Part shown: piece after piece, positions 3,932 through 33,217 of the stretch | Numbering within the stretch: position 1 is the stretch's first letter | How the letters are laid out: each line of letters opens with the position of its first letter | From: Desulfobacteraceae bacterium | GTDB taxonomy: Bacteria > Desulfobacterota > Desulfobacteria > Desulfobacterales > Desulfosalsimonadaceae | Assembly (NCBI GenBank): GCA_027353395.1 | Contig: DAIEHU010000001.1 | Span: forward strand, 1-33,217 | Direction of reading: 5' to 3' | Length of the DNA: 33,217 nucleotides | Notes under the pieces: model-generated | The model's input: the letters and a program-made list of their open reading frames with translations, nothing else | Database searches by the model: none | What the model was told of the DNA's origin: nothing | Made by a program: the position numbers and the translations under genes

Positions 3932-4215
3932 GTCATTTTGGTGATCACGTCAGGTATTTATACGCCATTGTACAAACACCTTAACTTTTTTCCAATAAAA
4001 TTAGTTTCAATAATTTTTTTTGTCAAGGTAATTTGTTTAAAAAAAATACCTTGGATTTGACAGCGCGCACGGAAACGGATCGATGGATGACGTAGAAAAA
4101 CAAATGAATCGCCCGCGCTAATTGAGCGGGGAACTGACGGTGATCACGGAAGACCGCAAAACACTGCTTTATTCAAGAATTGCAGATAGATGGATTTAAA
4201 GGAGCCGCCAGAAAA

Positions 4216-5001
4216 TTACCTTTTGGGTTTGATTTCCGGTGTTTTGACCCCGAACAAAAACATTTTGATCCAGGCCATGCCCAGTTTGAACACGGCCACA
4301 TCGTCTGTTTTGATGCGTATGCGCAAGTTCGCCTCGATTTTATAGCGCTGCAAAAATGTGCTGTTCAGCACAAAATTCCTGAACGCATCCCCATTGTAAG
4401 CCGCCATAAACGCCATCCGGCCTTTCTTTCCCTCCGGGCCTTCCCCTCCGAACGGGTCCGCCTGGAACAGCCGCATCACGTTCGCCCAGGCTGTGGTCAT
4501 CTGGTTATAAAACGCCGCCTCCTGGTCCGCCTCCCAGGTTTTTAAGGTCCAGACCGCAGTTTCATGACGGCCCTCGCAAAACTCCGGGGGGCGGAAAAAA
4601 TGCACCAGTTGCGTGGTATTTTTTCCCGCATCAAAATAGAGACCATGCTCCACGGGAAATGCCCGGCAGGTATGGGGCCGGTCAGCATATACCCGGCAGC
4701 CGCTGTCCGTTAAAAAAGGACAGGTTTTTTCCGGGTCATCATTCATGCGCAGCAGGACATCCGGAAAATAATGGCCGGGCCGCAGGACGATATCCGTGTA
4801 ATGATCAATAAATGTATCGGACGGGATATTTAAATGCTGCTTTAACCTAATGATATCATATGGGTTTAAAAAAAAATTCAGGTTGCGGCAGCACTGGTTG
4901 AAACAAGCGGCTCCGGGATGGCACCGGAATGCAAAGGTGTCTCCATCCGGTATCAATTGGCCCCGGATTTCAGACAGGTTGTCGGTTTCGACACGTTTCA
5001 T
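4216..5001 (-). CDS. YkgJ-family (UPF0153) cysteine-cluster protein
   Basis: FRCHPGAACFNQCC ... CPFLTDSGCRVYADRPHTCRAFP matches the YkgJ-type Zn/Fe-chelating pattern. The ORF-track start at 5034 is a TTG. ATG 5001 (MKRVETDN) has AGGA about 10 nt upstream, so I use 5001. Confidence 0.75.
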   Translation of the reverse strand: MKRVETDNLSEIRGQLIPDGDTFAFRCHPGAACFNQCCRNLNFFLNPYDIIRLKQHLNIPSDTFIDHYTDIVLRPGHYFPDVLLRMNDDPEKTCPFLTDSGCRVYADRPHTCRAFPVEHGLYFDAGKNTTQLVHFFRPPEFCEGRHETAVWTLKTWEADQEAAFYNQMTTAWANVMRLFQADPFGGEGPEGKKGRMAFMAAYNGDAFRNFVLNSTFLQRYKIEANLRIRIKTDDVAVFKLGMAWIKMFLFGVKTPEIKPKR

Positions 5002-18222: not shown

Positions 18223-19359
18223 ATGAATTATGACTTCAGCGATAAAGAATTTAATCTTTTTGTGGAAATACATACGTTGATGGGGACATTCGCGAAAGAG
18301 AACGATTTGGAGACCAAGGATGCGGAAAAATCGGAGAAAAACACCCGACGGGCCCTGGCGCTCCTTTCCAGAACCCCTTATTTAACATTGGGTATCGAAA
18401 AAGCAGATAATTATAATGGTCTGCTCACGCTCATGGGCGGCATGGAAACTATCGCTGCGGCTTCGCCGTCTCTGTTTTTATCCATCGAAACCAGCACCCG
18501 GATTTTTGGACGGATTTTAAGCGCCTGGGGCAGCGCCTCCCAAAAGGAAAAACTGCTGCCGGCCCTGTTGAACGGTCAGATCATCGGTGCGGTTGGCTTA
18601 TCGGAAGACGCCATGAACGTGGACAATGATCCCCTGATGACCACGGCGGTGATGGACGGGGACAGCGCAATCATTTCCGGACACAAACAGTATGTGGTGA
18701 ACGGCCCCGTTGCGGACTGGTTAGCTGTCGCGGGAAGGCTGGACGGGAAAAACGCCATTTTTCTGGTTGAAAAAGGGACGCAAGGGCTCTCCATTGGTGG
18801 AAAAGCCGCTACCTTGGGCTATGAAGGCGTTGCCATTTCCAATCTGATGTTCGAAAACTGCGCTATTGCATCAAGCCAGGTGATCTTTCCCGAAAATGAC
18901 AAAACGATGTTAACCACGCTAAAGCTATGGGAAAACCAGATTCTTATCGGAGCGAGCCTGGGGCTCATGAAAAGGGCATTTGAGTCGGCAAAAGTATATG
19001 CCAAAAAACACAAAACCGGAGGAAAGCCGATCATCGCCTATCAGGAAGTCGGGTTCAAATTGGCTCAAATGCTGACCCTGTTTCAGGCTTCTCAATTATT
19101 TGCTTACAAGGTCGCGTGGGCGGCGGATGCCGAACCGAAGGACATTGAATCATTAACTCTTTGCGCCAAGGTGTTCTGTACGGAAGCCGCCGAGCAGGTG
19201 GCCGGCGACGCCATGAAAATTCTCGGCGGTTCGGGATTTTTATCCGGAAACCCTGTGGAAGAAGCATTCCGCTGCGCCAAGTATGGGCAGATCGCTGGAA
19301 CTTCCACTGAAATTTCGCGGGTCAAAATCGGCGACAGCGCCTTGGGTTTGATGAAATAG
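18223..19359 (+). CDS. Acyl-CoA dehydrogenase-fold protein with degenerate signature motifs; possible non-FAD partner subunit
   Basis: At 378 aa it has ACAD length and layout (VVNGPVADW, ILGGSGF, IAGTSTEI). The signature-1 block reads GLSEDAMNVDNDP instead of [ST]E..[GA]G[ST]D, and signature 2 is also off consensus. Confidence 0.8.
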   Translation: MNYDFSDKEFNLFVEIHTLMGTFAKENDLETKDAEKSEKNTRRALALLSRTPYLTLGIEKADNYNGLLTLMGGMETIAAASPSLFLSIETSTRIFGRILSAWGSASQKEKLLPALLNGQIIGAVGLSEDAMNVDNDPLMTTAVMDGDSAIISGHKQYVVNGPVADWLAVAGRLDGKNAIFLVEKGTQGLSIGGKAATLGYEGVAISNLMFENCAIASSQVIFPENDKTMLTTLKLWENQILIGASLGLMKRAFESAKVYAKKHKTGGKPIIAYQEVGFKLAQMLTLFQASQLFAYKVAWAADAEPKDIESLTLCAKVFCTEAAEQVAGDAMKILGGSGFLSGNPVEEAFRCAKYGQIAGTSTEISRVKIGDSALGLMK

Positions 19360-19377: not shown

Positions 19378-20052
19378 ATGCCTGCAAAAAAATTAATAAA
19401 AGAAGAAAATTTATCCAAATCCGCCCAGCGGCGGCAGCGGGAACGGGAGCATCGCTATCAGACCATTCTGACAGCGGCTGAAAAACTTTTCGCCACGGAA
19501 GGCTACCACAAATCCAGCATGGAGCAGATCGCCAATGCCTCTGAAGTGTCGGTGGGCGCAGTTTATTTTTATTTTAAAAACAAAGAGGATCTTATCATTC
19601 AGCTCTTGGATGAAATCGGATATGTACTTCGAAGCACGCTGGGCAATGCGTTTAAAAAACATGGTCCCACCATGGAAGGCTTCAAGCAGGCGGGGTATGC
19701 TTTTTTTGAAGACTTCTGCGTAAACTACCCGGAAAAATGCGCCATTATCTTCCGGGAATCGGTCGGCAACAGTCCCGAACTGGAGGGGCGCCGGAAAAAG
19801 CTCTTTGAAAAATGCACCGGCGACGTGCGCTCCGCCTTACTGTCGGTTTGCGAGAATCAAGGGCTGAAGTTTAAGGGGCAATATTCGGCTGAAGTGATCG
19901 CCGTCAGCATTATGGGGATTTACGAACGCGTTGCCTATCAATATTTGTTCTGGCAGGACGCCTCCAACGATATCCGTCTCATCGGCCGCGACGCTGTGGG
20001 TTTTATCACCGGCGGCGTCAACTATCTGCTCAATGAAATCTCATGCACTTAA
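19378..20052 (+). CDS. TetR/AcrR-family transcriptional regulator
   Basis: N-terminal HTH region: ILTAAEKLFATEGYHKSSMEQIANASEVSVGAVYFYFKNKEDL. Length is 224 aa. Confidence 0.9.
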   Translation: MPAKKLIKEENLSKSAQRRQREREHRYQTILTAAEKLFATEGYHKSSMEQIANASEVSVGAVYFYFKNKEDLIIQLLDEIGYVLRSTLGNAFKKHGPTMEGFKQAGYAFFEDFCVNYPEKCAIIFRESVGNSPELEGRRKKLFEKCTGDVRSALLSVCENQGLKFKGQYSAEVIAVSIMGIYERVAYQYLFWQDASNDIRLIGRDAVGFITGGVNYLLNEISCT

Positions 20053-20615
20053 AAGGCGCTTTGCATACCCATACGACCTGTTCCGACGGTGAACTGACCA
20101 TCGAAGAAGCCGTTCGGATATACACCGGACTGGGATTTGATTTTATCGCCCTCACGGACCATGACTACCTCATGCGGCCGGACTGCTACAGGTCGGTCGC
20201 AGCCCTGAAGACCGCTCTGATCATTTTTACCGGCGTGGAAATGACCGTTTTTGAAAAGGGGTACGTGCATGTCAACCGGATTGATGGGGACAAGGATGTT
20301 CTCCATGTTTTCAATCATCCCTCAGAACTCGATCTCCCCATGGAAAAAGCAATTGAAAGGATTTGCGCTGTCTCGGAAAAGTTTCCGCTGGATGCGGTGG
20401 AAGTGACTTCCAAGGGATTCCGTGCCCCCGAATTTGAAATTCCGCGAATCCCGTTGCCGAAAGTCGCCACGGATGATTCCCATACCCGGATCGGATGCGG
20501 AAGGGCATGGATTGAGATGGATTGCATGAGGGATAAAGACAAAATCATCCGGGCTATCCGGCACGGGGATTTTTGGAACTGTTACACGGAAACCCGTTAT
20601 TTGTTTATAAAATAA
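20043..20615 (+). CDS. Minimal PHP-domain metal-dependent phosphoesterase
   Basis: The 190-aa ORF has HTHTTCSDG, ALTDHD, GVEM, FNHP and TDDSH, which is the full PHP metal-ligand series. Its start overlaps the TetR stop by 10 nt. Confidence 0.7.
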   Translation: MHLKGALHTHTTCSDGELTIEEAVRIYTGLGFDFIALTDHDYLMRPDCYRSVAALKTALIIFTGVEMTVFEKGYVHVNRIDGDKDVLHVFNHPSELDLPMEKAIERICAVSEKFPLDAVEVTSKGFRAPEFEIPRIPLPKVATDDSHTRIGCGRAWIEMDCMRDKDKIIRAIRHGDFWNCYTETRYLFIK

Positions 20616-20652
20616 AAATATATAGCCCATTCAAATGAAGGAGGGACATGCA

Positions 20653-21813
20653 ATGGCGAAAAGAGTTGGTATTTGTGCGGTTGCGCAGACAACATATGAG
20701 CGCGACAAAAAAGACATCCGGTTTCAGGGCATGGCCCTGGAAGTTCTGGAAGCGCTCCGGAAACAGGTGGATGTCACATTTTCACGGCATGTGAAGGGCG
20801 CTAAAGGCGTCGATATGTCCATCAGCGTATCCGACGATATATTTGACGCCCGGACCATCTCGGACAATGCAATGACGGATGTCCTCGGCGCGCATTTCGG
20901 ATGCGAGGAAAAGGTCGCTCAGGAAGGGATTCAGGCATTGTATTACGCTTTGGCCGCAATCCAGTCCGGACACAACAATATGGTGCTGGTGATGGGCCAC
21001 TGCAAGGAGTCCCAGGCGCAAAGCCGGAACATGGTGACCCACATGGCCTTTGATCCCTTTTTTACCCGTCCCGTGGGAATTGATTTCTGCGCAGCGGCTG
21101 GTCTGCAGGCCCAGGCATACAGCGCCAAATCGCAAATCACGGATGAACATCTGGCGAAGATCGTCGTCCGCGCAAGGGAAAACGCATCCAAAAACCCATG
21201 TACGCAGGAAATCGGCAAAGTGTCCGCGGAAGAGGTCATGGCATCTCCGATGCTGGTCGATCCCATTCGCGAACTGCACGCCTATCCGGTTTCGGACGGG
21301 GCTGTGGGCATGATTCTCGCCACGGAAGATACCGCCAAAAAAATATGCAAAAATCCGGTCTGGATTACCGGCGTCGGCAACTGCATGGACAGTTTCTTTT
21401 TGGGCGACCGCGATTTGACTTCCAATTTCGCCCTGAAAAAGGCCGTGCAATATGCGTATAAACGAGCCGGTATCACAGATCCCCGGTCCGCCTTTGACGT
21501 CATTGAATTGTCCGACCAGTACGCCTATCAGCTTCCCATGTGGGCGGAAGGCATCGGTCTCTGCGATGCCGGGAAAGGCGCGAAATGGCTGGACGGCGGC
21601 GGGCCGGTTAAACAGAACGTCAATACGTCAGGCGGTATGCTGGCCGGCAACCCGCTGATCTTGGGCGGACTTGTCCGTGCGGCGGAGGCGGCCATTCAAC
21701 TGCGCGGCGAGGCCGGGGACCGTCAGATCAACAATGCAAAAACAGCCATCGCTCATGGCGTTATGGGGCCGGCAGGTCAATTTCATTCAGTCATCACATT
21801 GGCAAGGGCTTAG
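20653..21813 (+). CDS. Thiolase-fold protein A (SCP-x/Ltp-like) lacking the canonical catalytic residues
   Basis: Thiolase-fold blocks are present: YPVSDGAVGMILA, NTSGGMLAGNPLILGG and QLRGEAGDRQ. Ala occupies the nucleophile position (KVAQEG). ATG 20653 follows AAGGAGGG (20638-20645); the ORF-track start at 20635 is an alternative. Confidence 0.85.
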   Translation: MAKRVGICAVAQTTYERDKKDIRFQGMALEVLEALRKQVDVTFSRHVKGAKGVDMSISVSDDIFDARTISDNAMTDVLGAHFGCEEKVAQEGIQALYYALAAIQSGHNNMVLVMGHCKESQAQSRNMVTHMAFDPFFTRPVGIDFCAAAGLQAQAYSAKSQITDEHLAKIVVRARENASKNPCTQEIGKVSAEEVMASPMLVDPIRELHAYPVSDGAVGMILATEDTAKKICKNPVWITGVGNCMDSFFLGDRDLTSNFALKKAVQYAYKRAGITDPRSAFDVIELSDQYAYQLPMWAEGIGLCDAGKGAKWLDGGGPVKQNVNTSGGMLAGNPLILGGLVRAAEAAIQLRGEAGDRQINNAKTAIAHGVMGPAGQFHSVITLARA

Positions 21814-21823
21814 GAGGCGAACA

Positions 21824-23002
21824 ATGAAAAAAAATAGAAATGTCGGCATTATCGGAGTAGGCCAATCCGTTTTTTCAAGCCATCGGGAAGAGGTGAACCA
21901 GCCGGAAATGATTCATGAAGCGGTTCTCGAGGCATTACAACATGCGGGAATGACCATTGGGGATGTGGACTGCATCGTTCATGGTAATATGGAACTCTTT
22001 GAAATGATTCATCAGCCTGATCTTTGGCATACCCTGGGCACCGGCGCTTATGGCAAGGAAACCCTGCGGGTCACCACCGGCGGCACCACCGGGGCCACCC
22101 TATGCTGCACGGCGGATTATCTGGTCTCATCCGGGCTTCACGACGTGGTGCTGGCTATCGGTTTTGAAAAGCTCCAGGAAGGGCATACCACCGGCGGCAT
22201 CACCAACATGGCCGATGCGCTCTGGGCCAGACAGCTTCAGACCGGCGCCTTAACCGGTATGACAGCCGCCCAGGTCATCGAAGAATTTGGCGAAGAACGG
22301 GCGAAAAAAGCCGCCATGAAATACAGAATTATCATGGACAAACATGCCATGAAAAATAAAAAAGCCCACCGCCGTCTGGGCCTTGAATTTGACCAGGCGG
22401 ATGACCTGATGGTCAATTCTCCGGCCCTGGTGGGTGAACTTCGCATGATTCATATGTGTTCCCAGTCTGATGGCGCCTGCGCCATGATTTTCGCCTCCGA
22501 GGAAAAAGCCAAACAGTTCTGCAAGCAGCCTGCATGGATCAAGGACCATATTACAGTCCACCGGGAAGAAAGCTTCTGCCTTTTCGGCGACGCGCCCGTT
22601 GTCTATTCTCACCGGTATGCTGCTGAAAAATTGTTTGAACGCAACGGTATCAAGAATCCGCGCAAAGAAATCGATATGTTTGAAATGTATGACCCGTCTT
22701 CCTGGTGGGGGCTTGACTGGCTCCGGCAGTTTCTGCTGTTTGAAGGGGATGAACATCTCAAAATGGTGGAAAATGACGATATCACCATTGACGGCAGCTT
22801 TCCGGTGAATCCATCCGGCGGCGTCACGGCATCGAATCCCATCGGGGCCACGGCCATGGTAAGGGTGGCGGAAGCGGCTCTTCAAATTATGGGGGACGCG
22901 GGCGATCATCAGGTCAAAAAGACCGTTAACCAAGCCTTGGCATCGGGATTCGGCGGGACCATGTGGACGGTTCTGTTCCTGCTGACCCGGAACGTCCCAT
23001 AG
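21824..23002 (+). CDS. Thiolase-fold protein B (SCP-x/Ltp-like) lacking the canonical catalytic residues
   Basis: AIGFEKLQEG, CSQSDGACAMIFASEE and NPSGGVTASNPIGATAMV are present, with Gly at the nucleophile position (TTGGTTGA). ATG 21824 follows AGGAGG (21812-21817). The ORF-track start at 21671 overlaps gene A and is rejected. Confidence 0.85.
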   Translation: MKKNRNVGIIGVGQSVFSSHREEVNQPEMIHEAVLEALQHAGMTIGDVDCIVHGNMELFEMIHQPDLWHTLGTGAYGKETLRVTTGGTTGATLCCTADYLVSSGLHDVVLAIGFEKLQEGHTTGGITNMADALWARQLQTGALTGMTAAQVIEEFGEERAKKAAMKYRIIMDKHAMKNKKAHRRLGLEFDQADDLMVNSPALVGELRMIHMCSQSDGACAMIFASEEKAKQFCKQPAWIKDHITVHREESFCLFGDAPVVYSHRYAAEKLFERNGIKNPRKEIDMFEMYDPSSWWGLDWLRQFLLFEGDEHLKMVENDDITIDGSFPVNPSGGVTASNPIGATAMVRVAEAALQIMGDAGDHQVKKTVNQALASGFGGTMWTVLFLLTRNVP

Positions 23003-23043
23003 TAGGTGGGGATTCTTTCCCGACAAACTGAAAAATACCCATT

Positions 23044-23062
23044 GCCGGGTAAGAAACCCGGC
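23044..23062 (+). terminator. Weak intra-operon hairpin (attenuator or processing site?)
   Basis: GCCGGGT-AAGAA-ACCCGGC gives a 7-bp stem followed by CTGTTTTA, in the 109-nt gap between gene B and the ligase fusion. Confidence 0.25.
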
Positions 23063-23111
23063 CTGTTTTAAAGATTAAACATATCAAAAAGCCATCTTTG
23101 AGGAGGCAGAA

Positions 23112-25457
23112 ATGAACTTAGGCAAATACATCGATGATGCCGTCAAAAAATACAGGGATCTTCCATATATGCAGTTTTATGACCGCACCATTACATACGG
23201 CGATTTTAGCAAAAAAATTAACGCCCTGGCCAATGCACTGAAAAAACAAGGATTTAAAAAAGGTGATTTTATCCACGTATGGGTGCAGAACAGCCCGGAA
23301 ACCCTGATCGCCTATTATGCCATTATCAAAATCGGCGCTGTGGCCGGCCCCATCAACGGGTGGTGGAAAGCGCCGGAAGTGGAATACCTGTTAAACGATT
23401 CCAAAGGCTGTGGTCTTATTGTTGAAGATCAATACCTTTCCATTTACAACGAGATTAAGGATAAATGCCCGAACTTAAAAAAAATCATCGAGGTCAGCGA
23501 AAAACCGGCCGACGGGCATATTTCTTTTGCCGCACTGCTGGCGGAAGGGGACAACACACCCTTTGAGAGCGACGCGGACCCCGAAGATATTGCCTTTATC
23601 TTCTATACGTCCGGCACCACGGGAAACCCCAAGGGCGTTTTGCTTTCCAATAAGAATGTGGTGGCCGACGCCAACGGGATCAATGCGGCCCTGAATACGG
23701 ATGAAAATCGGAATTTCCTCTGCTTTCTGCCCCTGTTTCACGTCAACGCAATGCTCACCTGCACATCCGCCCTGGAAAAAGGCCATCAGATTATTCTGCG
23801 GAAACAGTTTTCCGCCAGCGAATTCTGGGAAGTGGTGGAAAAATATAAAGTGAATTTTTGGTCCGCGGTTCCGGCAGTCTATCAGATTCTGCTCTCCGAC
23901 CCTACCCGCCAGAAATTTGATTTGAGCTCCCTTGAATTCGGCATCTGCGGTGCCGCCCCCCTGACCCAGGAAACCATGACCAACTTCCAGGACACATTTG
24001 GCATTCCCATCGTCGAAGGATATGGCCTTACGGAAGGCACTTGTGTCAGCACCATCAATCCGATGAATGGTGTCCGCAAGATCGGTTCCATCGGCCTGGC
24101 CCTGCCCGGCCAGGAAGTTCTGATTGTTGATGAACACGGAAATGAGGTTCCCACTGGGGAACGCGGTGAGATCGTCATCAAGGGCGATAATGTCATGAAG
24201 GGATATTACAACAAGCCCGAGGAAACCGCCAAAACCATTATAGGTGGCTACCTGCATACCGGAGACGTGGGCGTCAAGGACGCGGACGGCTATATTTTCA
24301 TTGTGGACCGGATGAAGGACATGATCATCCGGGGCGGGGAAAATATCTATCCCAAGGAAATCGACAATCTCCTGGCAGGCCACCCCAAAATTAGCGAGGC
24401 CGCAACCGTAGGCGTTCCGGACAAGACCATGGGGGAAGAAGTCAAAGTATTTGTGGTGGCGGAAGACGATTCCCTGACCGAAGAAGAAGTCATTGAATAC
24501 TGCAAACAAAACCTCGCCTCATTTAAAGTCCCGAAATATGTTGAAATCCTTAGCGAGGATTTTCCTCGAAGCCCCATCGGCAAAGTACTGAAAAAGACAC
24601 TTCGGGAGTGGGGGCTGAAAGGCTCGCCCACCAAGCCCAAGGGGCCGGAAGTCACGGTGAATGATATTTTCGGCACCATGGAATCGCGGGTCAATCCGGA
24701 TGGCGTTAAAGGCATAACCGCCAACTACGGGTATATTATTACCGGCACGGGCGGCGGCGAGTATACCGTGTGCGTGTCTGACGGCAGGGTCCAGGTCAAG
24801 GAAGGCATCCACAGCCCCAACGTCACCACCACCTGCTCGGCCAAGGACTGGATCGCCATCACTCTGGGCAAGCTTGATGGCATGACCGCCTTTACCTCCG
24901 GAAAACTGAAAGTCGAGGGCGATATGGGTCTGCTGGGTAAAGCCACCAAATTCTTTAAAAAATACACGCCCCCTGCCGGCGGTGACCCGGTGGAAAAAGG
25001 CGAAGAGCTTATCGTCAAAAAACAGATTCTATCCATCCCCCAAAAATTTTCCACCGGTCCGGTCATGGGCAAATTCTTAAATGCGTTTAAAGATAAAAAA
25101 ATACTGGCGAACCGGTGCCCGAAATGCGGCCGTCTCCAGCTCCCCCCGAGAGAAGTATGCGCCGAATGCGTGGTCCGTGCTGCCGACTGGGTGGAAGTCG
25201 GCCCGGATGGCGTGATCTCCATCATGGATGTCACCTTCTATGCCAGTCCGGATCCACTGACCGGAGAGAGCCGGGAAACGCCTTATGTTTCCGCCCACTT
25301 CCTGCTGGATGGGTGCAAAGGCCATGAAACCCTCTGGCATGAATTAAAGCCCGAGGACAGGGATCGCGCAAAAAAAGGAGACCGGGTCAGGCCGGTATGG
25401 AATGAAAACCGAATCGGCGCCATCACGGATATTTTATACTTTGAACTCATCGATTGA
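23112..25457 (+). CDS. Tri-domain fusion of an AMP-forming acyl-CoA synthetase, an SCP2 lipid-binding domain and a DUF35 Zn-ribbon/OB-fold domain
   Basis: Residues 1 to about 500 have YTSGTTGNPKGV (nt 23604-23639), GYGLTEG and GDVGVKDADGYIFIVDRMKDMIIRGGENIYPKEID. Residues about 512-618 have WIAITLGKLDGMTAFTSGKLKVEGDMGLLGKATKFF, an SCP2 pattern. Residues about 640-781 have CPKCGRLQLPPREVCAEC plus an OB-fold tail. Confidence 0.85.
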   Translation: MNLGKYIDDAVKKYRDLPYMQFYDRTITYGDFSKKINALANALKKQGFKKGDFIHVWVQNSPETLIAYYAIIKIGAVAGPINGWWKAPEVEYLLNDSKGCGLIVEDQYLSIYNEIKDKCPNLKKIIEVSEKPADGHISFAALLAEGDNTPFESDADPEDIAFIFYTSGTTGNPKGVLLSNKNVVADANGINAALNTDENRNFLCFLPLFHVNAMLTCTSALEKGHQIILRKQFSASEFWEVVEKYKVNFWSAVPAVYQILLSDPTRQKFDLSSLEFGICGAAPLTQETMTNFQDTFGIPIVEGYGLTEGTCVSTINPMNGVRKIGSIGLALPGQEVLIVDEHGNEVPTGERGEIVIKGDNVMKGYYNKPEETAKTIIGGYLHTGDVGVKDADGYIFIVDRMKDMIIRGGENIYPKEIDNLLAGHPKISEAATVGVPDKTMGEEVKVFVVAEDDSLTEEEVIEYCKQNLASFKVPKYVEILSEDFPRSPIGKVLKKTLREWGLKGSPTKPKGPEVTVNDIFGTMESRVNPDGVKGITANYGYIITGTGGGEYTVCVSDGRVQVKEGIHSPNVTTTCSAKDWIAITLGKLDGMTAFTSGKLKVEGDMGLLGKATKFFKKYTPPAGGDPVEKGEELIVKKQILSIPQKFSTGPVMGKFLNAFKDKKILANRCPKCGRLQLPPREVCAECVVRAADWVEVGPDGVISIMDVTFYASPDPLTGESRETPYVSAHFLLDGCKGHETLWHELKPEDRDRAKKGDRVRPVWNENRIGAITDILYFELID

Positions 25458-25478
25458 TGATCCTATAGGAGACAAATT

Positions 25479-26378
25479 ATGAGCACAGCAACAAATGATT
25501 GTTTTATCGTCAATGGGAAGCTGGCCCTTCCCTATCAATACTTTGCCGGCCGAGCCGGAAGCCGGTTTATCATCAGCCTGCGGGATGAAAAAAAAATCAG
25601 GGGCTTAAAATGTCAGAAGTGCGGCAAAGTGTTTGTTCCGCCACGGGCTACCTGTGAAACCTGCTTTGAAGACATATGCGAGAACTGGGTGGATGTGAAA
25701 AATACGGGCGTTGTCACCTGTTTTACCATCATCCGCTATAAAGAGCCCCATCAGCCGGTTGACCCGCCCTATATTCTGGGGCTTGTCAAACTGGACGGCG
25801 CGGACACCCCGCTCGCCCACATCGTCAAAGGCGTACCTTTGAGCAAGATGAAAACCGGCCTCAAGGTCAAGGCGGTGTTCGCCAAAAAAACCACCGGCGG
25901 CATTATGGATATTGATCATTTCCAGGTAGTTGATGACAAACCTAAATTTGAAATGGGCTATTCCTATGATGAACTGGAGATCGGCATGTCCGCATCGTTT
26001 ACCAAAACGATTTCAGAGACCGATGTCTACCTGTTCGCGGGGATTTCCGGGGATTTCAACCCCATGCATATGAACGAAGAATTCGCCAAGATGACGCCTT
26101 TCGGCACCCGTATCGCTCATGGGGCTCTGCCCCAAAGTCTTATAGCGCCGGTTCTCGGCATGAAACTTCCGGGCCTGGGCACGGTCATTCCGGAAATCAC
26201 CGTCCGGTTCAAACGGCCCACCTATTTTGGCGACACCATCACCGCCATCGGCGAGGTCGTCGAAAAAATAGAAAAAAAACGATGGGTCCGCATGGAGCTC
26301 CGCTGGACCAATCAAAAAGATGAACTGGTGGCGGAGGGGTCTTGCCTGGCCATACCGCCGATGCCATTCAATAAATAA
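25479..26378 (+). CDS. DUF35 (Zn-ribbon/OB-fold) fused to a MaoC-like (R)-specific enoyl-CoA hydratase
   Basis: Residues 1 to about 150 have KCQKCGKVFVPPRATCETC plus an OB-fold. Residues about 160-299 carry the hot-dog hydratase-2 motif FAGISGDFNPMHMNEEFA (nt 26034-26087) and IAHGAL. Confidence 0.85.
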   Translation: MSTATNDCFIVNGKLALPYQYFAGRAGSRFIISLRDEKKIRGLKCQKCGKVFVPPRATCETCFEDICENWVDVKNTGVVTCFTIIRYKEPHQPVDPPYILGLVKLDGADTPLAHIVKGVPLSKMKTGLKVKAVFAKKTTGGIMDIDHFQVVDDKPKFEMGYSYDELEIGMSASFTKTISETDVYLFAGISGDFNPMHMNEEFAKMTPFGTRIAHGALPQSLIAPVLGMKLPGLGTVIPEITVRFKRPTYFGDTITAIGEVVEKIEKKRWVRMELRWTNQKDELVAEGSCLAIPPMPFNK

Positions 26379-26390
26379 GGATAAAATTGC

Positions 26391-27554
26391 ATGACATACG
26401 AATTCAAAACCGAATCCACCTATCAGGAATATTTCACCAAATCCCATGATCTGGTCAGAAAATCCGTCCGGGAATTTATTAAAAAAGAAGTGCTGCCGTT
26501 TATCAACGAATGGGAGGAAGCCGGGGAGTTCCCGAAAGAAATATACAAAAAAGCCGGGGATGTGGGAATCTTAGGTATTGGGTTTCCCGAAAAATTTGGT
26601 GGCACGCCGGGAGATATCTTTTTTGGGGTGGCGGCCAGCGAGGAACTCATGCGGTCCACTTCTGGCGGTTTTTGCGCAGGGCTGGGCTCCTTAAATATCG
26701 CGTTGCCCCCGATTTTAAACCTGGGTTCAGAGGAACTGAAACAAAAATTCATCCCGCCCGTGCTGGCCGGAGATAAAATCGCGGCCCTGGCCATCACTGA
26801 ACCCGGCGGGGGATCGGATGTGGCGAATATCAAAACAACGGCAGTGAAAGACGGCGGCCATTATATTATCAACGGCAGCAAGACGTTTATCACCAGCGGC
26901 TGCCGGGCCGACCAGGTCACCTGTGCGGTCCGCACCGGCGGGGAAGGCGCAAAGGGCATCAGCATGATCGTTGTGGAAAAAGGAACGCCGGGCTTTTCCG
27001 TCTCCAAAAAACTGAAAAAAACCGGCTGGTGGGCATCCGACACGGCCGAGCTCTTTTTCGACAATTGCCGCGTGCCGGCGGCAAACCTGATCGGCGAGGA
27101 AAACCAGGGATTCTACGCCATCGTGATCAATTTCCAGCAGGAACGGCTGGCGCTGGCGGTTATGGCCAACATGACGGCCCGCATGGCCCTTGAAGAAGCC
27201 ATCAAATATGCGAAGCAACGGGAAGCCTTCGGCAAACCCCTGACCGGTTTTCAGGTGACCCGGCACAAGCTGGCGGACATGGCGACACTGGTGGAGGCCA
27301 GTACGGAATTCACCTACCGGGTGGCGGCCAAAATCGGCGCGGGCGTCGACCAGATCAAGGAAGTGTCCATGGCCAAGAATTTTGCCTGTTCTGTCAGCGA
27401 CAAGGTCACTTTTGACGCGGTCCAGATTTTCGGCGGGTATGGCTATATGCGGGAATACGTGGTGGAGCGCCTGTACCGGGACAACCGGATCCTTTCCATC
27501 GGCGGCGGAACAACGGAAATCATGAAAGAAATCATATCCAAAATGATGATGTGA
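26391..27554 (+). CDS. Acyl-CoA dehydrogenase
   Basis: The 387-aa ORF has AITEPGGGSDVAN, FITSG, QIFGGYGYMREYVVERLYRD and IGGGTTEI. Confidence 0.9.
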   Translation: MTYEFKTESTYQEYFTKSHDLVRKSVREFIKKEVLPFINEWEEAGEFPKEIYKKAGDVGILGIGFPEKFGGTPGDIFFGVAASEELMRSTSGGFCAGLGSLNIALPPILNLGSEELKQKFIPPVLAGDKIAALAITEPGGGSDVANIKTTAVKDGGHYIINGSKTFITSGCRADQVTCAVRTGGEGAKGISMIVVEKGTPGFSVSKKLKKTGWWASDTAELFFDNCRVPAANLIGEENQGFYAIVINFQQERLALAVMANMTARMALEEAIKYAKQREAFGKPLTGFQVTRHKLADMATLVEASTEFTYRVAAKIGAGVDQIKEVSMAKNFACSVSDKVTFDAVQIFGGYGYMREYVVERLYRDNRILSIGGGTTEIMKEIISKMMM

Positions 27555-27655
27555 AAGACAGGGGGGACGGATAACACCGGATACAGGCCAATCGTTTACT
27601 CGTTTTTCTCATAGCGGGAAGTTCTGGCGACACTTACACCATTGCACAAGGAGAC

Positions 27656-29458
27656 ATGATGGAAAAAACAATCACTGAAGTTTTCAAAAATCGCTCCCAA
27701 AAATATAAGAACCGGCTGGCCGCCGAGAAGAAAAAAAGCGGCAAATGGGAAAAGATGACCTGGAGCGAATATTATGATCGCGCCCGATTTCTCGGCATCG
27801 GTCTCTATTCTCTGGGAATCAAAAAAGGGGACATGGTTGCCATCCTGTCTGAAAACTGTCTGGAATGGATTGTCACCGACATGGGGGCTCTGGGTATTGG
27901 CGCCGTGGTGGTGCCGGTTTATACGACGCTGGTCGCCGAAGAAGTCAAATATATTGTTGAAAATTCAGAATCCAAGGTCATTTTTGTTGAAAATAAAATG
28001 CAGCTCGACAAGATCCTCTCTTTTGTTGATGAAGTGAAGTCTCTGGAAAAAATCGTGGTTTTCAATAACAGGGACGCCAAAAACAGCCATCCGGAAGTCA
28101 TCAGCTTTGAGGAACTCCTTGCCTCCGGAAAAGACGGCATTGAAAAACCGGCCTTGTTTGAGACCCTTGCCGCTGAAGTCGCCCCGGAAGACCTGGCCAC
28201 CATTGTTTACACTTCCGGCACCACCGGCGTTCCCAAAGGGGCCATGATCACCCATAAAAACATCATGGCGGTCATCCGTTCGCTGGACAGCATCATCCCC
28301 AAATTCGCCTATGATACGGACCAGACCGTGCCGCTGCTGCCGCTCAGCCATGTATTCGAGCGCGTGGCCGGCCATTTTTACGGCATGTACGTGGGGCTCA
28401 CGGCTTCCTACGCCGAAAGCATCGACACCTTTGTGGTGGATGTCAAGGAAAAGCGCCCGACGGTGGTTCTGGCGGTTCCCAGGGTTTGTGAAAAAGTCTA
28501 CCAACGGATTCTCGGCCAGGTGGAGGAACAGCCCGAGTGGAAGCAAAAAATGTTCCACTGGGGATACAATGTGGGCCTTGAGATCAGCGCGTTGCGGGAA
28601 AAGAAAAAGCCGATTCCGCTGTTCCTTGGGCTTCAATACAAGCTGGCCTATAATCTGATCTTTAAAAAACTGGCGGATGCATTGGGGGGAAGGGTCCGGT
28701 GGATGACTGCATCCGGCGCGCCCACGTCCCGGGATATCATCCTGTTTTTCAATGCCTCCGGCATCACCGTCATTGAAGGATACGGCATGACGGAATCCTG
28801 CGCCCCGGCCACCATGAGCAGTCTTTCGGATTATAAAATAGGGACGGTCGGGAAACCGCTGCCAGGTGTTGATATCAAAATCGCCGAAGATGGCGAAATT
28901 CTGGTCAAGGGCGATAATGTATTCGCCGGATACTGGAAAATGGAAAAAGAAACGAAAAACGCCTTCACGGATGACGGGTATTTGATGAGCGGGGATATCG
29001 GGAAATTCGACGAAGATGGATTTCTGCTGATCACGGACCGGAAAAAAGATCTGATCATTACTTCCGGCGGGAAAAATGTCGCACCCCAGAAAATTGAGGG
29101 AATTTTCAAATTCGATCCCCTGTTCGCCCAGTTTATTGTGGTGGGGGAACGGAAAAAATTCTTGAGCGCGCTGATCAATATTAACCTGGAACAGGCCCAG
29201 CGGCTTGCCGCACAGCAGGGCGTCGCATTCGATAAACCACAGGACTTGCTGGACAACAAGGCGTTTCTGAAAATCGTGGATGAGCATGTTGCGGAGAAAA
29301 ATCAAAAACTGGCCCGGTATGAAACCATCAAAAAATACCGGATTATTCGCGATGAATTTTCTCAGGAAGGCGGAGAATTGACCCCGTCGCTGAAGATGAA
29401 GCGCAATGTGATTTATAAAAAATACGACGGCCTCATTGATACGATGTATGAGGGTTGA
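27656..29458 (+). CDS. Long-chain-type AMP-forming acyl-CoA synthetase (FACL/FadD-like, 600 aa)
   Basis: IVYTSGTTGVPKGAMITHKN, EGYGMTE, GDIGKFDEDGFLLITDRKKDLIITSGGKNVAPQKIE, and a C-terminal LTPSLKMKR. Confidence 0.9.
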   Translation: MMEKTITEVFKNRSQKYKNRLAAEKKKSGKWEKMTWSEYYDRARFLGIGLYSLGIKKGDMVAILSENCLEWIVTDMGALGIGAVVVPVYTTLVAEEVKYIVENSESKVIFVENKMQLDKILSFVDEVKSLEKIVVFNNRDAKNSHPEVISFEELLASGKDGIEKPALFETLAAEVAPEDLATIVYTSGTTGVPKGAMITHKNIMAVIRSLDSIIPKFAYDTDQTVPLLPLSHVFERVAGHFYGMYVGLTASYAESIDTFVVDVKEKRPTVVLAVPRVCEKVYQRILGQVEEQPEWKQKMFHWGYNVGLEISALREKKKPIPLFLGLQYKLAYNLIFKKLADALGGRVRWMTASGAPTSRDIILFFNASGITVIEGYGMTESCAPATMSSLSDYKIGTVGKPLPGVDIKIAEDGEILVKGDNVFAGYWKMEKETKNAFTDDGYLMSGDIGKFDEDGFLLITDRKKDLIITSGGKNVAPQKIEGIFKFDPLFAQFIVVGERKKFLSALININLEQAQRLAAQQGVAFDKPQDLLDNKAFLKIVDEHVAEKNQKLARYETIKKYRIIRDEFSQEGGELTPSLKMKRNVIYKKYDGLIDTMYEG

Positions 29459-29475
29459 AAAGAGGAGGGAGAAAT

Positions 29476-30630
29476 ATGAGCGGTAGAGTCGCCGTCTGCG
29501 CCGTGGCGCAGATCAAGAACGAACCGGATATCTGGTATCAGAGATTCCAGGGGATGCTCTTTGAGTGTTTTGAATCCATCATCAAGCAAACCGGGGTGAC
29601 CTTCGACATGGAAAAGGGCATCCGGAACATCATCACCTGCTCCGATGACGTGTTTGACGCCCGCACCATTTCCGACAACGGCGTGACGGACGCGGTGGGC
29701 GCGCATTTCCGGGGCGAGGAAAAGGCCGCCCAGGATGGCATCAACGGCTTGGGATATGCCATGGCATCCATTCTGTCCGGTCACGATGATCTGGTGCTCT
29801 TGATGGGGCACTGCAAGGAATCCCAGTCGGAAAGCCGGAATATGTGCAGCAATCTGGCATTCGATCCGTTTTTCTGCCGGCCCCTGGGACTGGATTTCTT
29901 AAATGCCGCCGCTTTTCAGGCCCGGGCCTATATGAATAAATCCGGAGTCACGGATGCGCATCTGGCAAAAATTGTCTCCCGTTCCCGCAAGCTTGCGGCT
30001 AAAAATCCATATGCCAGAGAAAACGATCCCATCACGGAACAGAATGTTTTAGAATCACCGCTCCTGGCCGATCCCATCCGGCAACTGCACCAGTACCCGG
30101 TCACTGACTGGGCGGTGGGAATGCTCCTGTGCTGCGAGGATCGCGCCCGTGAGTTTACGGACAACCCGGTATTTCTCACCGGATTCGGAAGCTGCATGGA
30201 CAGTTATTTTCTGGGGGACAGAGACCTGGCGTCCAATTTCGCCCTAAAAAAAGCCGCGCAACGGGCTTACCGCATGGCCGGAATTTCAGATCCCAAAAAA
30301 GAGTTTGATATTGCGGAATTAAATGACGCCATTGCCTATCAATTGCCCATGTGGGCGGAAGGTCTGGGACTTGCCGATGAAAATCAGGGGGGCGAATGGG
30401 TTGCATCCGGAGCGTTGGATGCCCAGCACGTCAACCTTTCCGGGGGCATGCTAAACGGCAATCCGATTATGCTGGGGGGGCTTGCCCGGGCAACGGAAGC
30501 CATTTTACAGCTCAGGGGCGAAGCCGGCGACCGGCAGGCGGAAGGTGCTGCAAAAGCCGTGGCCCACGGAACCACAGGCCCGGCCGGGCAGCACCATGCG
30601 GTGATTATTCTTGAGAGGCAGGGGGTATGA
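29476..30630 (+). CDS. Thiolase-fold protein A', paralogue of 20653..21813
   Basis: It shares DDVFDARTISDN, GAHFRGEEKAAQDGI, MGHCKESQ, AYQLPMWAEGLGL, SGGMLNGNPIMLGG and QLRGEAGDRQ with A. ATG 29476 follows AGGAGGG. The ORF-track start at 29455 is a TTG that overlaps the ligase stop. Confidence 0.85.
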   Translation: MSGRVAVCAVAQIKNEPDIWYQRFQGMLFECFESIIKQTGVTFDMEKGIRNIITCSDDVFDARTISDNGVTDAVGAHFRGEEKAAQDGINGLGYAMASILSGHDDLVLLMGHCKESQSESRNMCSNLAFDPFFCRPLGLDFLNAAAFQARAYMNKSGVTDAHLAKIVSRSRKLAAKNPYARENDPITEQNVLESPLLADPIRQLHQYPVTDWAVGMLLCCEDRAREFTDNPVFLTGFGSCMDSYFLGDRDLASNFALKKAAQRAYRMAGISDPKKEFDIAELNDAIAYQLPMWAEGLGLADENQGGEWVASGALDAQHVNLSGGMLNGNPIMLGGLARATEAILQLRGEAGDRQAEGAAKAVAHGTTGPAGQHHAVIILERQGV

Positions 30631-31829
30631 ACAAAATGGGATATAAAAAGAAAAACAGAAATGTCGGCATCGTCGGCATCGGCGAAACCAAATTTTCCAG
30701 CCACCGGGAAGACGTGAACCAGCCGGAAATGATTCATGAAGCCGTCCGCCAGGCGCTGGATGATGCGGGGCTCAAAATCGATGATATCGACTGCGTGGTC
30801 CACGGCAACATGGAACTGTTTGAAATGATTCACCAGCCGGACCTCTGGCATGTGCTGGGAACCGGCGCGCATGGAAAGGATTCTTACCGTCTCACCACCG
30901 GCGGCACCACCGGCGGGACGCTGGTCTGCGCCGCGGATAACCTGGTCGCCTCCGGCATGTACGATGTGGTCATGGCCATCGGGTTTGAAAAACTTCAGGA
31001 AGGCCATACCACCGGCGGCATCACCAATATGGCGGACCCGCTATGGGCAAGGAAGCTTCAGTCCGGGGCGTTGACGGCCCAGGCGGCCGTAAAGCTCATC
31101 GATGAATTCGGAGCGGACCGGGCCCGGAAAGCGGCCATGACCTACCGCATCATCATGGACAAGCACGCCTGTAAAAATCCCAACTCCCACCGGGCGTTCG
31201 GTCTGGATTGGGACCAGATGGACGATCTCATTAAAAATTCCCCGCCGCTCATTGGCGATCTGCGGCTCATCCACATGTGCTCCCAGTCGGACGGGGCCTG
31301 CGCCATGATTTTTGCATCCGAGGAAAGGGCCAGGCAGATCGCAAAGACCCCGGTATGGATCCGGGACCATATCACCGTGCACCGGGAAGAGACCCTGGAT
31401 ATGCACAATAATTTTTATCCCAATAGAACAACCCACCGGTTTGCCGCGGAAACCCTTTTTAAACGCAACGGCATCACAAATCCCCTGGAATATTTTGACG
31501 TGTTTGAAATGTATGACCCGTCCGCATGGTGGGGACTTGACTGGCTACGGGAATTTTTTTTGCTCAAAGGCGACGAGCATCTAAAGCTGGTGGAAAACCA
31601 CGAAATTATGATTGACGGCAAAATGCCCGTCAATCCATCCGGAGGCGTCATCTCCGCCAATCCCATTGGCGCCACCGCCATGGTCCGGACGGCCGAGGCC
31701 GCCAAGCAGGTCCGGGGCAATGCAGGTCCGCACCAGATACCAAGGCCCGTCAACCATGCCTTGGCATCCTCTTTCGGCGGGACCATGTGGACAGTGTTAA
31801 CCATGCTTGAAAAAGAATTGAACTGGTAG
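30627..31829 (+). CDS. Thiolase-fold protein B', paralogue of 21824..23002
   Basis: It shares NQPEMIHEAV, HGNMELFEMIHQPDLWH, TTGGTTGG, AIGFEKLQEGHTTGGITNMAD, CSQSDGACAMIFASEE, FEMYDPSAWWGLDWL, NPSGGVISANPIGATAMV and FGGTMWTVL with B. It has an ATGA overlap with A'. Confidence 0.85.
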   Translation: MNKMGYKKKNRNVGIVGIGETKFSSHREDVNQPEMIHEAVRQALDDAGLKIDDIDCVVHGNMELFEMIHQPDLWHVLGTGAHGKDSYRLTTGGTTGGTLVCAADNLVASGMYDVVMAIGFEKLQEGHTTGGITNMADPLWARKLQSGALTAQAAVKLIDEFGADRARKAAMTYRIIMDKHACKNPNSHRAFGLDWDQMDDLIKNSPPLIGDLRLIHMCSQSDGACAMIFASEERARQIAKTPVWIRDHITVHREETLDMHNNFYPNRTTHRFAAETLFKRNGITNPLEYFDVFEMYDPSAWWGLDWLREFFLLKGDEHLKLVENHEIMIDGKMPVNPSGGVISANPIGATAMVRTAEAAKQVRGNAGPHQIPRPVNHALASSFGGTMWTVLTMLEKELNW

Positions 31830-31838
31830 GGGGAATCC

Positions 31839-32687
31839 ATGACTGAATTTTACGGAATCAAAATTGAAGACATATTCAATTCCATGAAGGGCCGCTTCCG
31901 TCCCGAAGGCGCTTCCGGCGTCACAAACACCTTCGGTTACGCCATCAAGGATGCCGGCAAATGGAAACTGACCATTGCAAACGCTGCAATGGCGATTGAA
32001 AAAACCGATGACCTGTCCGGATGCGATGTGGTTTTAGACACGGACGCTGAAACATTCGTGGGCTTAAACATTGGGAAAGTGGACGCCATGTCCGCCCTGA
32101 CCTCCCGGAAGCTGAAAGTGAGGGGGGATTTCAATACCTTCGGCCTGACCAGCCGGATGTTTCAAAAATACGTGACGCCGGGACAGGAAACAAGGCAGGC
32201 GCAGGAGCTGATCGCCCTTAAAAAAACCATTTCGGTGAATCAGCGCTTTGCTACGGGCCCTGTTTTCGGCAAATTTTTGAAAGGATTAAAAGACAAAAAA
32301 ATACTGGCCATCAAATGCCCGGTGTGCGGGCGGCTTCAATCTCCTCCCAGGGAAACCTGCGCCATTTGCAGGGCCAGAAATAATGAATGGGTGGAAATCG
32401 GACCCAAGGGAGAACTTCGGATGATGGAATACTGCTATTACGCCAGCCCGGACCCCCTGACCGGCGAGACCCGCGAAACCCCTTATGGAGCCGTCGGCAT
32501 TCTTCTGGACGGGTGCAAAGACGAAGAAGTATTCTGGCATCTGCTCCGCCCGGACCAGCTGGACCAGGCCAAAATGGGAAATGTGTTTTACGGCAAGGTG
32601 ACCCACGGCACCCGGCTGCGGCCGGTCTGGAATGAAAAAAGAACCGGCACCATAGAAGACATTAAATATTTTGAAATCGACGAATGA
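31839..32687 (+). CDS. SCP2-DUF35 didomain protein, paralogue of the C-terminal 270 aa of 23112..25457
   Basis: The N-terminal SCP2 pattern is VDAMSALTSRKLKVRGDFNTFGLTSRMF. It is followed by FATGPVFGKFL, KCPVCGRLQSPPRETCAIC, YASPDPLTGETRETPY and RPVWNEKRTG. Confidence 0.85.
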   Translation: MTEFYGIKIEDIFNSMKGRFRPEGASGVTNTFGYAIKDAGKWKLTIANAAMAIEKTDDLSGCDVVLDTDAETFVGLNIGKVDAMSALTSRKLKVRGDFNTFGLTSRMFQKYVTPGQETRQAQELIALKKTISVNQRFATGPVFGKFLKGLKDKKILAIKCPVCGRLQSPPRETCAICRARNNEWVEIGPKGELRMMEYCYYASPDPLTGETRETPYGAVGILLDGCKDEEVFWHLLRPDQLDQAKMGNVFYGKVTHGTRLRPVWNEKRTGTIEDIKYFEIDE

Positions 32688-32698
32688 GGAGTCCGGTC

Positions 32699-33160
32699 AT
32701 GGATAAAAATTTCGATACAACAGATTGTTATATGATTGAAGGAAAACTGGCCCTGCCCTATACGTATTTCGCCGGGCGGGTGGGGAGCACATTTATTACG
32801 ACCATCCGCGACAGGCACAAAATCATGGGCGTGAAATGCAACGCCTGCAATAAGGTATTTGTGCCCCCCCGCCAGACATGCGAACGGTGCCTGGAAGATA
32901 TCCGTGACAACTGGGTGGAACTGGGCAATACCGGGGAGGTCGTCAATTTCACGGTCGTCCGCTACGATGACAAGCACCTGCCGAGAAAAGCCCCATTTGT
33001 AATGGCTATGATTCAACTTGATGGCGCGGACACGCCTATGGTGCATATTCTGGAAGGAATTGATCCTGAAAGAATCACCATCGGCCTGAAAGTCCAGGCG
33101 GTGTTTGCGGCAAAAACCACCAACACCATTTTAGACATCGATCATTTTGAACCGGTATAA
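32699..33160 (+). CDS. Stand-alone DUF35 (Zn-ribbon/OB-fold) protein, paralogue of the N-terminal half of 25479..26378
   Basis: GKLALPYTYFAGRVGSTFI, KCNACNKVFVPPRQTCERC, LDGADTP, LDIDHF. ATG 32699 follows GAGGAG (32687-32692). The ORF-track start at 32684 (ATGA overlap) is an alternative. Confidence 0.8.
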   Translation: MDKNFDTTDCYMIEGKLALPYTYFAGRVGSTFITTIRDRHKIMGVKCNACNKVFVPPRQTCERCLEDIRDNWVELGNTGEVVNFTVVRYDDKHLPRKAPFVMAMIQLDGADTPMVHILEGIDPERITIGLKVQAVFAAKTTNTILDIDHFEPV

Positions 33161-33175
33161 AAAAGGAACCCCATC

Positions 33176-33217
33176 ATGGCGCTCATCTATGAAAAAAAAG
33201 GCCGAATTGCTTATATT
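33176..33217 (+). CDS. 5' end of a further gene with a crotonase-like N-terminus (truncated by the window)
   Basis: ATG 33176 begins MALIYEKKGRIAYI, which resembles the usual enoyl-CoA hydratase start (..E..G.IA.ItLNRP). Only 14 codons are visible. Confidence 0.3.
   Translation, partial: MALIYEKKGRIAYI

Follow-up and report, generated by a model that had tools for sequence, protein, structure and literature searches.

Two paralogous four-gene modules lie within a same-strand run of genes extending from 17036 to the end (33217) of the 33,217-nt stretch analysed here (the window; contig DAIEHU010000001.1 of the Desulfobacteraceae assembly GCA_027353395.1). Each module comprises two thiolase-fold proteins (A and B in module 1, A' and B' in module 2) and two DUF35 proteins of distinct classes (alpha and beta). 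As read from its sequence, the module most likely encodes a thiolase-fold heterodimer that lacks the nucleophilic Cys and is served by two adaptor classes within an anaerobic lipid-degradation operon. This is of more interest than the duplication, which is in itself an ordinary, well-behaved case of module paralogy. With middling confidence, we read the modules as a paralogous pair of complexes, scaffolded by DUF35 and of retro-aldol type, which would handle different intermediates in a single pathway of lipid degradation. The module genes are:

20653..21813, + strand: A, module 1 thiolase-fold subunit (Pfam Thiolase_C_1)
21824..23002, + strand: B, module 1 thiolase-fold subunit (Pfam Thiolase_C_1)
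23112..25457, + strand: fusion of acyl-CoA ligase (residues 1-500), SCP2 (~527-615) and alpha-class DUF35 (zinc ribbon 669-686) (Pfam AMP-binding, SCP2, zf-ChsH2)
25479..26378, + strand: fusion of beta-class DUF35 (residues 1-150) and MaoC (R)-hydratase (Pfam zf-ChsH2, OB_ChsH2_C, MaoC)
29476..30630, + strand: A', paralogue of A (blastp; Pfam Thiolase_C_1)
30627..31829, + strand: B', paralogue of B (blastp; Pfam Thiolase_C_1)
31839..32687, + strand: SCP2-alpha-class DUF35 without a ligase, paralogue of the C-terminal third of the 23112-25457 product (blastp; Pfam SCP2, zf-ChsH2)
32684..33160, + strand: beta-class DUF35 standing alone, paralogous to the N-terminal half of the 25479-26378 product (blastp; Pfam zf and OB)

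Thiolase-fold subunits without thiolase catalytic residues

Residue conservation was counted in 64 A, 28 A', 73 B and 28 B' orthologues. All of these sequences, like the four window proteins, lack the Cys nucleophile, the HDCF His and Cys and the GHP His. At the site of the Cys nucleophile, B and B' carry TTGGTTG, with Gly at the Cys position (101/101), and A and A' carry Ala/Gln-Glu-Gly. HDCF is replaced by YDPS in B and B', by SDQY in A and by NDAI in A', and GHP is replaced by SNP, ANP and GNP among the four proteins (S-N-P in B). Because every thiolase catalytic residue is missing from these alignments, the four thiolase-fold proteins cannot be thiolases, a point overlooked in an earlier, sequence-only reading of the window.

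The Tyr that opens the YDPS motif, Tyr289 in B and Tyr296 in B', is invariant (101/101) and is aligned to the His of HDCF. This position is occupied by the catalytic-base Tyr in Ltp2 (Tyr294, motif YDHF) and in Sal (Tyr302, motif YDCY) (PMC12329534). The Tyr is absent in A and A', which have Ser or Asn there; these proteins share a GHCKESQ motif with a conserved His (92/92) and Cys (84/92). B also possesses conserved coenzyme A (CoA)-loop-like motifs (NPSGGV..NPIGATA). On this residue pattern, B is proposed to be the catalytic (retro-aldol) subunit and A its non-catalytic or auxiliary partner.

The predicted structure of B, with a predicted local distance difference test (pLDDT) score of 78 and a predicted template-modelling (pTM) score of 0.86, matches 6hrv, 6esq, 7pxp and 7yvy at template-modelling (TM) scores of 0.77-0.84. 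It places B in the DUF35-partnered/SCP2-thiolase fold group. A fold search with this model recovered Ltp2, Sal, BbsB, PhlC and true SCP2-thiolases all at TM 0.75-0.84, a range that does not separate aldolase from thiolase.

Collinear paralogy of the two modules

As the sequence-only reading had proposed, the four gene pairs are collinear and in the same order. In blastp alignments, A and A' share 58.7% identity over 385 aa (E 2e-171) and B and B' 69.6% over 391 aa, bearing out by-eye estimates of about half and two-thirds, respectively. Residues 514-779 of the ligase fusion align with the 31839-32687 product (44.9%, 276 aa, E 2e-86), and residues 5-151 of the DUF35-MaoC protein align with the 32684-33160 product (56.5%, 147 aa, E 3e-66). 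Cross-class identity is far lower, at 25-28% between A and B and 26-30% between the SCP2-linked DUF35 and the other DUF35 class; therefore, the A/B split and the split of the DUF35 classes are older than the module duplication. At the nucleotide level, the module copies are 57-71% identical, and a repeat search of the window recovers the paired blocks, always offset by 8811-8824 nt.

The domain assignments of the sequence-only reading agree with the Pfam calls listed above, and the CxxC-x10-CxxC ribbon is intact in all four DUF35 domains, as it had stated. In the two SCP2-linked DUF35 domains Pfam finds the zinc ribbon only, with no OB part; their blastp alignment to the other class nonetheless covers the entire DUF35 unit. 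The near-zero gaps claimed at the module 2 junctions are present (-4, +9 and -4 nt), but the start of the last gene is more likely at 32684, in an ATGA overlap, than at 32699 as first given.

A 29-mer noticed in that reading occurs exactly twice in the window, at 21893-21921 in B and 30714-30742 in B', with a chance expectation of 0. The operon genes were mapped onto 80 genomic loci fetched around B homologues (labelled L001 onward), and in nine other loci the 30-nt segment around the 29-mer differs between the two copies by 1-5 nt. Because the equivalent segment stays near-identical between copies in other genomes, the 29-mer reflects codon and residue constraint, and gene conversion was rejected as its origin.

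Age of the duplication and selection on both copies

Synonymous sites between the paralogues are saturated, with a proportion of synonymous differences (pS) of 0.65-0.73 and an NG86 synonymous divergence (dS) of 1.5-2.7. For this reason, the ratio of nonsynonymous to synonymous divergence (dN/dS) between the paralogues, 0.12-0.26, can only be read as a maximum. More than 120 database orthologues of B, at 81-95% identity, are each closer to B than B' is (70%).

Bootstrap support in a neighbour-joining (NJ) tree built from 206 A/B-family sequences was 100% both for A+A' and for B+B', 94% for the A' clade and 96% for the B' clade; both the A' and the B' clade contain Spirochaetota members. Monophyly of the A clade and of the B clade is weakly supported (36-41%), and deep-branching sequences from L061, L070, L072, L074 and L081 join near the B/B' split. 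Given the position of the B' clade with the deepest lineages of the B type, the good support for the A' and B' clades and the saturation of synonymous sites, the duplication is approximately as old as the sampled family, in keeping with the ancient origin first suggested.

Compared with close orthologues in L002, L004, L006, L010 and L014, all eight module genes have a dN/dS (omega) of 0.04-0.13. B is the most conserved module gene (omega ~0.045), and one partner of each heteromeric pair evolves 2-3 times faster than the other (A relative to B, and the acyl-CoA dehydrogenase homologue ACD2 relative to ACD1, both described below). No frameshifts are present within the window, where all open reading frames (ORFs) are intact. 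Both copies are thus under strong purifying selection, as had been claimed, and decay of one copy was rejected; the split ligase gene of L001 belongs to another assembly. That locus (GCA_028068915.1, JAPTTG010000184.1) is 99% identical to window positions 20618-33102 with two indels, and its ligase-SCP2-DUF35 gene at 2495-4831 is called as two genes of 328 and 446 aa, through either an assembly error or a strain-level frameshift.

DUF35 classes and their cargo

The alpha-class DUF35 always comes with SCP2, whose copy number ranges from one to three or more and is reflected in ORFs of ~790, 900 and 1010 aa; the window has one copy and L010 three. The ligase is fused to the alpha-class DUF35 in 43/56 loci. 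Orthologues of the ligase-SCP2-DUF35 gene lie at L010:11246-14266 and L032:11300-13984, the ORF reaches 1354 aa in L081, and in six loci the ligase is missing altogether. For the SCP2-DUF35 protein of module 2 (31839..32687), the names of 561 homologues are generic or absent, and none is functional.

The beta-class DUF35 is fused to MaoC in 46/52 module 1 loci and is bare, with no fused domain, in module 2. In six Spirochaetota/Leptospirales loci (L075:12752-14179, and also L071, L073, L077, L078 and L080) it is instead fused to a beta-keto acid cleavage enzyme (BKACE, PF05853). This BKACE-fused DUF35 is ~70% identical to window 32699-33154, and its zinc ribbon lacks the fourth Cys. Stand-alone BKACE genes, found in L012, L013, L015, L030, L040, L044 and L055, stand beside the operon in several Desulfobacterales, and their products are 70-76% identical to the Spirochaetota BKACE (52% in L030). 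The window encodes no BKACE.

From these fusions, we infer that the two DUF35 classes act as docking adaptors for helper enzymes. In solved DUF35 complexes, one DUF35 is bound per thiolase-fold subunit; a 1:1 hetero-oligomer of thiolase-fold and DUF35 subunits, as suggested in the sequence-only reading, is plausible by analogy with this precedent and with the actinobacterial A-like/B-like pairs, whose neighbouring gene encodes two DUF35 units in tandem. DUF35 fusions to SCP2 and to hot-dog dehydratases, as well as tandem DUF35 proteins, were catalogued in 2010. Our literature search found no description of ligase-DUF35 or BKACE-DUF35 fusions, nor of the operon; an apparent DUF35 match in a fitness-screen preprint was rejected as a prefix artefact (DUF3584).

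Operon architecture and gene content

The full gene order is ACD1-ACD2-TetR-PHP-A-B-[ligase-SCP2-DUF35a]-[DUF35b-MaoC]-ACD3-ligase-A'-B'-[SCP2-DUF35a']-DUF35b'-ECH, where DUF35a and DUF35b denote the alpha and beta classes. The genes outside the modules are:

17036..18178, + strand: ACD1, acyl-CoA dehydrogenase, first gene of the operon (Pfam Acyl-CoA_dh_N/M/1)
18223..19359, + strand: ACD2, acyl-CoA-dehydrogenase-like partner (Pfam, alignment)
19378..20052, + strand: TetR-family regulator (conserved position)
20043..20615, + strand: short PHP-family metal-phosphoesterase-like protein, 190 aa (Pfam PHP)
26391..27554, + strand: ACD3, acyl-CoA dehydrogenase with the catalytic Glu present (Pfam, alignment)
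27656..29458, + strand: FadD11-like acyl-CoA ligase, 600 aa (Pfam, NCBIfam)
33176..33217, + strand: start of a crotonase-family enoyl-CoA hydratase (ECH) gene, truncated at the window end (translation MALIYEKKGRIAYI)

The operon codes for three acyl-CoA dehydrogenases (ACADs), one MaoC hydratase, two crotonases (ECH) and two ligases. Neither a 3-hydroxyacyl-CoA dehydrogenase nor a canonical thiolase is encoded in the window or in the orthologous loci that extend past the operon end; in L038 and L044 the operon ends in unrelated genes. This gene content follows the aldolytic ACAD-hydratase-aldolase logic of the igr and Shy-Sal systems, not ordinary beta-oxidation. The DUF35-carrying MaoC hydratase is encoded in module 1, and in module 2 the bare DUF35 is followed by crotonases. 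The MaoC part of the 25479..26378 product has an intact hydratase-2 motif (FAGISGDFNPMH...), and the truncated MALIYEKKGRIAYI agrees with the beginning of the ECH_1 gene found at the same position in L010.

ACD1, which heads the conserved operon in ~50 loci (omega ~0.035), retains the catalytic Glu and the FAD motif by alignment. In ACD2, Gly replaces the catalytic Glu and the TEPxxGSD FAD motif is gone; its omega of ~0.12 corresponds to evolution ~3 times faster than that of ACD1. ACD2 is likely a non-catalytic subunit of a heteromeric ACAD, comparable with those of steroid-degrading actinobacteria. The ligase fusion matches NCBIfam PRK06187 above cutoff, and the FadD11-like ligase accompanies module 2, Spirochaetota included.

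The TetR-family regulator has only weak best matches, to the fatty-acid regulators FasR and FadR. The PHP gene overlaps the TetR gene by 10 nt and always stands immediately 5' of A, or of A' where module 2 comes first or alone, Spirochaetota included; the weak best PDB and NCBIfam matches of its product are of the 3',5'-nucleoside bisphosphate phosphatase and RNase RNM types. The 109-nt gap separating B from the ligase gene holds the region's best terminator-like hairpin (23044-23062, GCCGGGT-AAGAA-ACCCGGC with a T-rich tail after it), which may be an attenuator or mRNA-stabilising element that separates A/B levels from those of the downstream genes.

Distribution in other genomes

The order ACD1-ACD2-TetR-PHP-A-B-[ligase-SCP2-DUF35]-[DUF35-MaoC]-ACD3 is conserved across Desulfobacterales; Desulfosarcina alkanivorans PL12, D. 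widdelii PP31 and a metagenome-assembled genome of Desulfosudis oleivorans all carry the operon. A survey of genomes for the module gene order, proposed together with the original claim of duplication, thus finds it conserved in this order of bacteria and reaching Spirochaetota for module 2. Co-occurrence was assessed in 45 loci with both module types or enough flank to judge. In 16 of the 45, module 2 follows downstream of module 1, and in three it comes upstream, directly after PHP; it is absent within ~10 kb of module 1 in 18 (a local, not genome-wide, absence). The A'/B' type occurs alone in the remaining eight, six of them titled Spirochaetota or Leptospirales. Because each module occurs locally without the other, the two can work independently.

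A third, more distant module, composed of an A-like protein, a B-like protein and a single DUF35 with 33-45% identity to the window proteins, lies nearby in some loci (L030:577-4200, L051:14905-17700, L061:14126-16900 and, at ~17-21 kb, L071-L080). Heteromeric thiolase-like/DUF35 modules have therefore multiplied repeatedly. The Leptospirales cluster in L075 (4113-7895 and 17008-18782) additionally encodes a dephospho-CoA kinase (CoaE), two CoA-transferase subunit pairs and a GMC oxidoreductase, which hints at chemistry on free acids and CoA recycling.

Proposed mechanism and alternative explanations

We infer for each module a pseudo-symmetric complex, in which an A.B thiolase-fold heterodimer would form the core and each subunit would bind one DUF35 zinc-ribbon/OB adaptor. 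The core would most likely be a C-C lyase of retro-aldol type, resembling Ltp2, Sal and the Ltp3/Ltp4 proteins of steroid side-chain degradation, with B supplying the catalytic Tyr and A serving as the non-catalytic partner. The DUF35 adaptors would bring the lipid-holding SCP2, with or without an activating ligase, and the hydratase to the core. Both modules would be kept for acting on distinct intermediates or substrates within a single pathway, possibly in successive rounds of chain shortening, each with its own ligase, hydratase type and dehydrogenase. A broader version of this scheme, which we advance as possible and no further, is a dehydrogenase- and thiolase-free chain shortening of bulky or branched lipids on a Cys-less heterodimer with interchangeable DUF35-docked cargo, in which the two modules would carry a single substrate through successive aldolytic rounds and which some Spirochaetota would have acquired by transfer.

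Several observations weigh against assigning aldolase chemistry to these modules. B lacks the second catalytic residue of Ltp2 (Tyr344) and of Sal (Cys304) and is therefore not assignable as either; Pro291 occupies the position of Sal Cys304 and Ltp2 His296, and Asn338, ~49 residues past the Tyr, falls near the Tyr344/Gln352 position, mapped by spacing only. The conserved His-Cys of GHCKESQ suggests that A may not be inert. B and B' score 273.6 and 264.6 against a cutoff of 514 for PRK08313, and A and A' score 165.1 and 163.1 against a cutoff of 419 for PRK07937; we take these two subfamilies to be Ltp3 and Ltp4, respectively. The missing dehydrogenase and thiolase could come in trans, a canonical thiolase is encoded upstream in L032, and the operon does not encode an aldehyde dehydrogenase. 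The genome survey was seeded with B, and all trees were built by NJ.

It is unlikely, in our judgement, that the A.B cores are catalytically dead scaffolds or lipid-holding hubs that assemble ligase, SCP2, hydratase or BKACE while other enzymes cleave the C-C bond. The loss of every canonical catalytic residue from all four proteins would fit such a role, as would the changeable DUF35 cargo (ligase, one to three SCP2 copies, MaoC, BKACE or nothing) and the Spirochaetota fusion in which the beta DUF35 carries BKACE, an enzyme that itself cleaves C-C bonds. However, no protein encoded by the operon is more conserved than B, at the identity across families and the omega given above, with an invariant Tyr at the aldolase base position and conserved CoA-loop-like motifs, and such constraint is more typical of an active site. 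The conserved GHCKESQ motif also bears on whether the proteins are still thiolases or Claisen-type acyltransferases with a relocated nucleophile, provided by this His-Cys in A or by Cys212 or Cys219 in B, and degrade bulky or 2-methyl-branched acyl-CoAs through ordinary thiolytic beta-oxidation like SCPx. The SCP2 association is reminiscent of peroxisomal SCPx, and the top fold matches include true SCP2-thiolases, BbsB and an archaeal thiolase. This is nevertheless quite improbable: other residues stand in place of the Cys nucleophile, the GHP His and the His and Cys of HDCF, the operon has no 3-hydroxyacyl-CoA dehydrogenase to make a 3-keto substrate, and the characterised Cys-less members of the fold group (Ltp2 and Sal) are all aldolases.

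The exact 29-nt match between B and B' and the split ligase gene in L001 could be taken as signs of recent duplication, gene conversion or decay of one copy, and the similarity between modules might have been that of family members only; we find such explanations barely credible. Within-class identity far above cross-class identity across a collinear four-gene series contradicts family-level resemblance, one of the two outcomes named beforehand as counting against the claim, and the intact window ORFs and low omega in both copies (0.04-0.13) contradict the other, decay of one copy. Saturated synonymous sites and separate, supported orthologue clades across several families and a second phylum argue against a recent event, and the region of the 29-mer is nearly as similar between copies elsewhere.

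Hundreds of Desulfobacterales genomes annotate these genes as "acetyl-CoA acetyltransferase" or "thiolase family protein", names ruled out by the absence of all thiolase catalytic residues. Should the cores prove to be aldolases, aldolytic cleavage of side chains would extend beyond aerobic steroid degraders and would also be conserved in the lipid degradation of anaerobic sediment bacteria, among them Desulfosarcina alkanivorans, D. widdelii and Desulfosudis, which degrade alkanes and aromatics. The natural series of DUF35-mediated tethering, with ligase, SCP2, MaoC and BKACE as cargo, could explain the general role of DUF35.

Comparison with known systems

The DUF35-partnered thiolases PhlABC and the HMGCS complex belong to the same fold group (TM 0.75-0.84), employ DUF35 as a stoichiometric zinc-ribbon/OB partner and combine two different thiolase-superfamily proteins. 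They keep the active-site Cys, whereas all thiolase residues are gone here. Peroxisomal SCPx likewise combines an SCP2-thiolase-type fold with an SCP2 domain and handles bulky or branched lipid acyl-CoAs; its SCP2 is fused directly to an active thiolase, whereas the association proposed here is non-covalent, through a DUF35 adaptor on a Cys-less core.

Ltp2-ChsH2-ChsH1 and Sal-Shy (PDB 6ok1 and 9myr) share with the modules an SCP2-thiolase fold without a nucleophilic Cys and a Tyr in first place of a Y-D-x-x motif, which is the catalytic base in those enzymes and is found here in B and B' only. In both systems a MaoC hydratase (ChsH2 or Shy) bears the DUF35 and is docked on the aldolase, an arrangement seen here at the level of genes only, and the operons follow the same ACAD, hydratase and aldolase logic without a dehydrogenase or thiolase. 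Ltp2 and Sal are, however, homodimers with a single DUF35 type, arranged as alpha-beta-beta-alpha, in contrast to the presumed A.B heterodimer with two DUF35 classes. Their second catalytic residue (Tyr344 or Cys304) is missing from B, the DUF35-MaoC domain order is reversed here, and SCP2 and ligase fusions have not been described for them.

The closest gene arrangement is that of the actinobacterial Ltp4/Ltp3-type pair with a tandem-DUF35 protein, a resemblance of kind and not of membership as judged from sequence comparison. The actinobacterial relatives were found by tblastn against plasmids. In Streptomyces clavuligerus, three adjacent genes encode a double-DUF35-OB protein, a PRK07937 member (A-like) and a PRK08313 member (B-like); the Streptomyces plasmid proteins score above the cutoffs, at 713 (B-like; PRK08313, 514) and 550 (A-like; PRK07937, 419). 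On a Rhodococcus plasmid, the genes around the pair encode two ACADs, a MaoC hydratase in split form, a ligase and an A-like protein that is degenerate. In mycobacteria, ltp3 and ltp4 are adjacent in the cholesterol region, beside Rv3521, and have been reported as aldol-lyases needed for degradation of C24-branched sterol side chains.

Like the window modules, the Ltp4/Ltp3-type pair has two distinct adjacent thiolase-fold genes and two DUF35 units, in a neighbourhood of heteromeric ACADs, MaoC hydratases and ligases. In its B-like protein the Tyr occupies the HDCF position, the Cys nucleophile is missing and GHP is replaced by ANP, and its A-like protein lacks the Tyr; the pair is also the best or near-best NCBIfam match of B and A. 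Identity is only ~31-35%, with scores well under the subfamily cutoffs. The window modules differ further in having separate DUF35 proteins, each with an intact zinc ribbon and fused to SCP2/ligase and to MaoC, in their strictly anaerobic Desulfobacterales hosts and in the duplication of the module.

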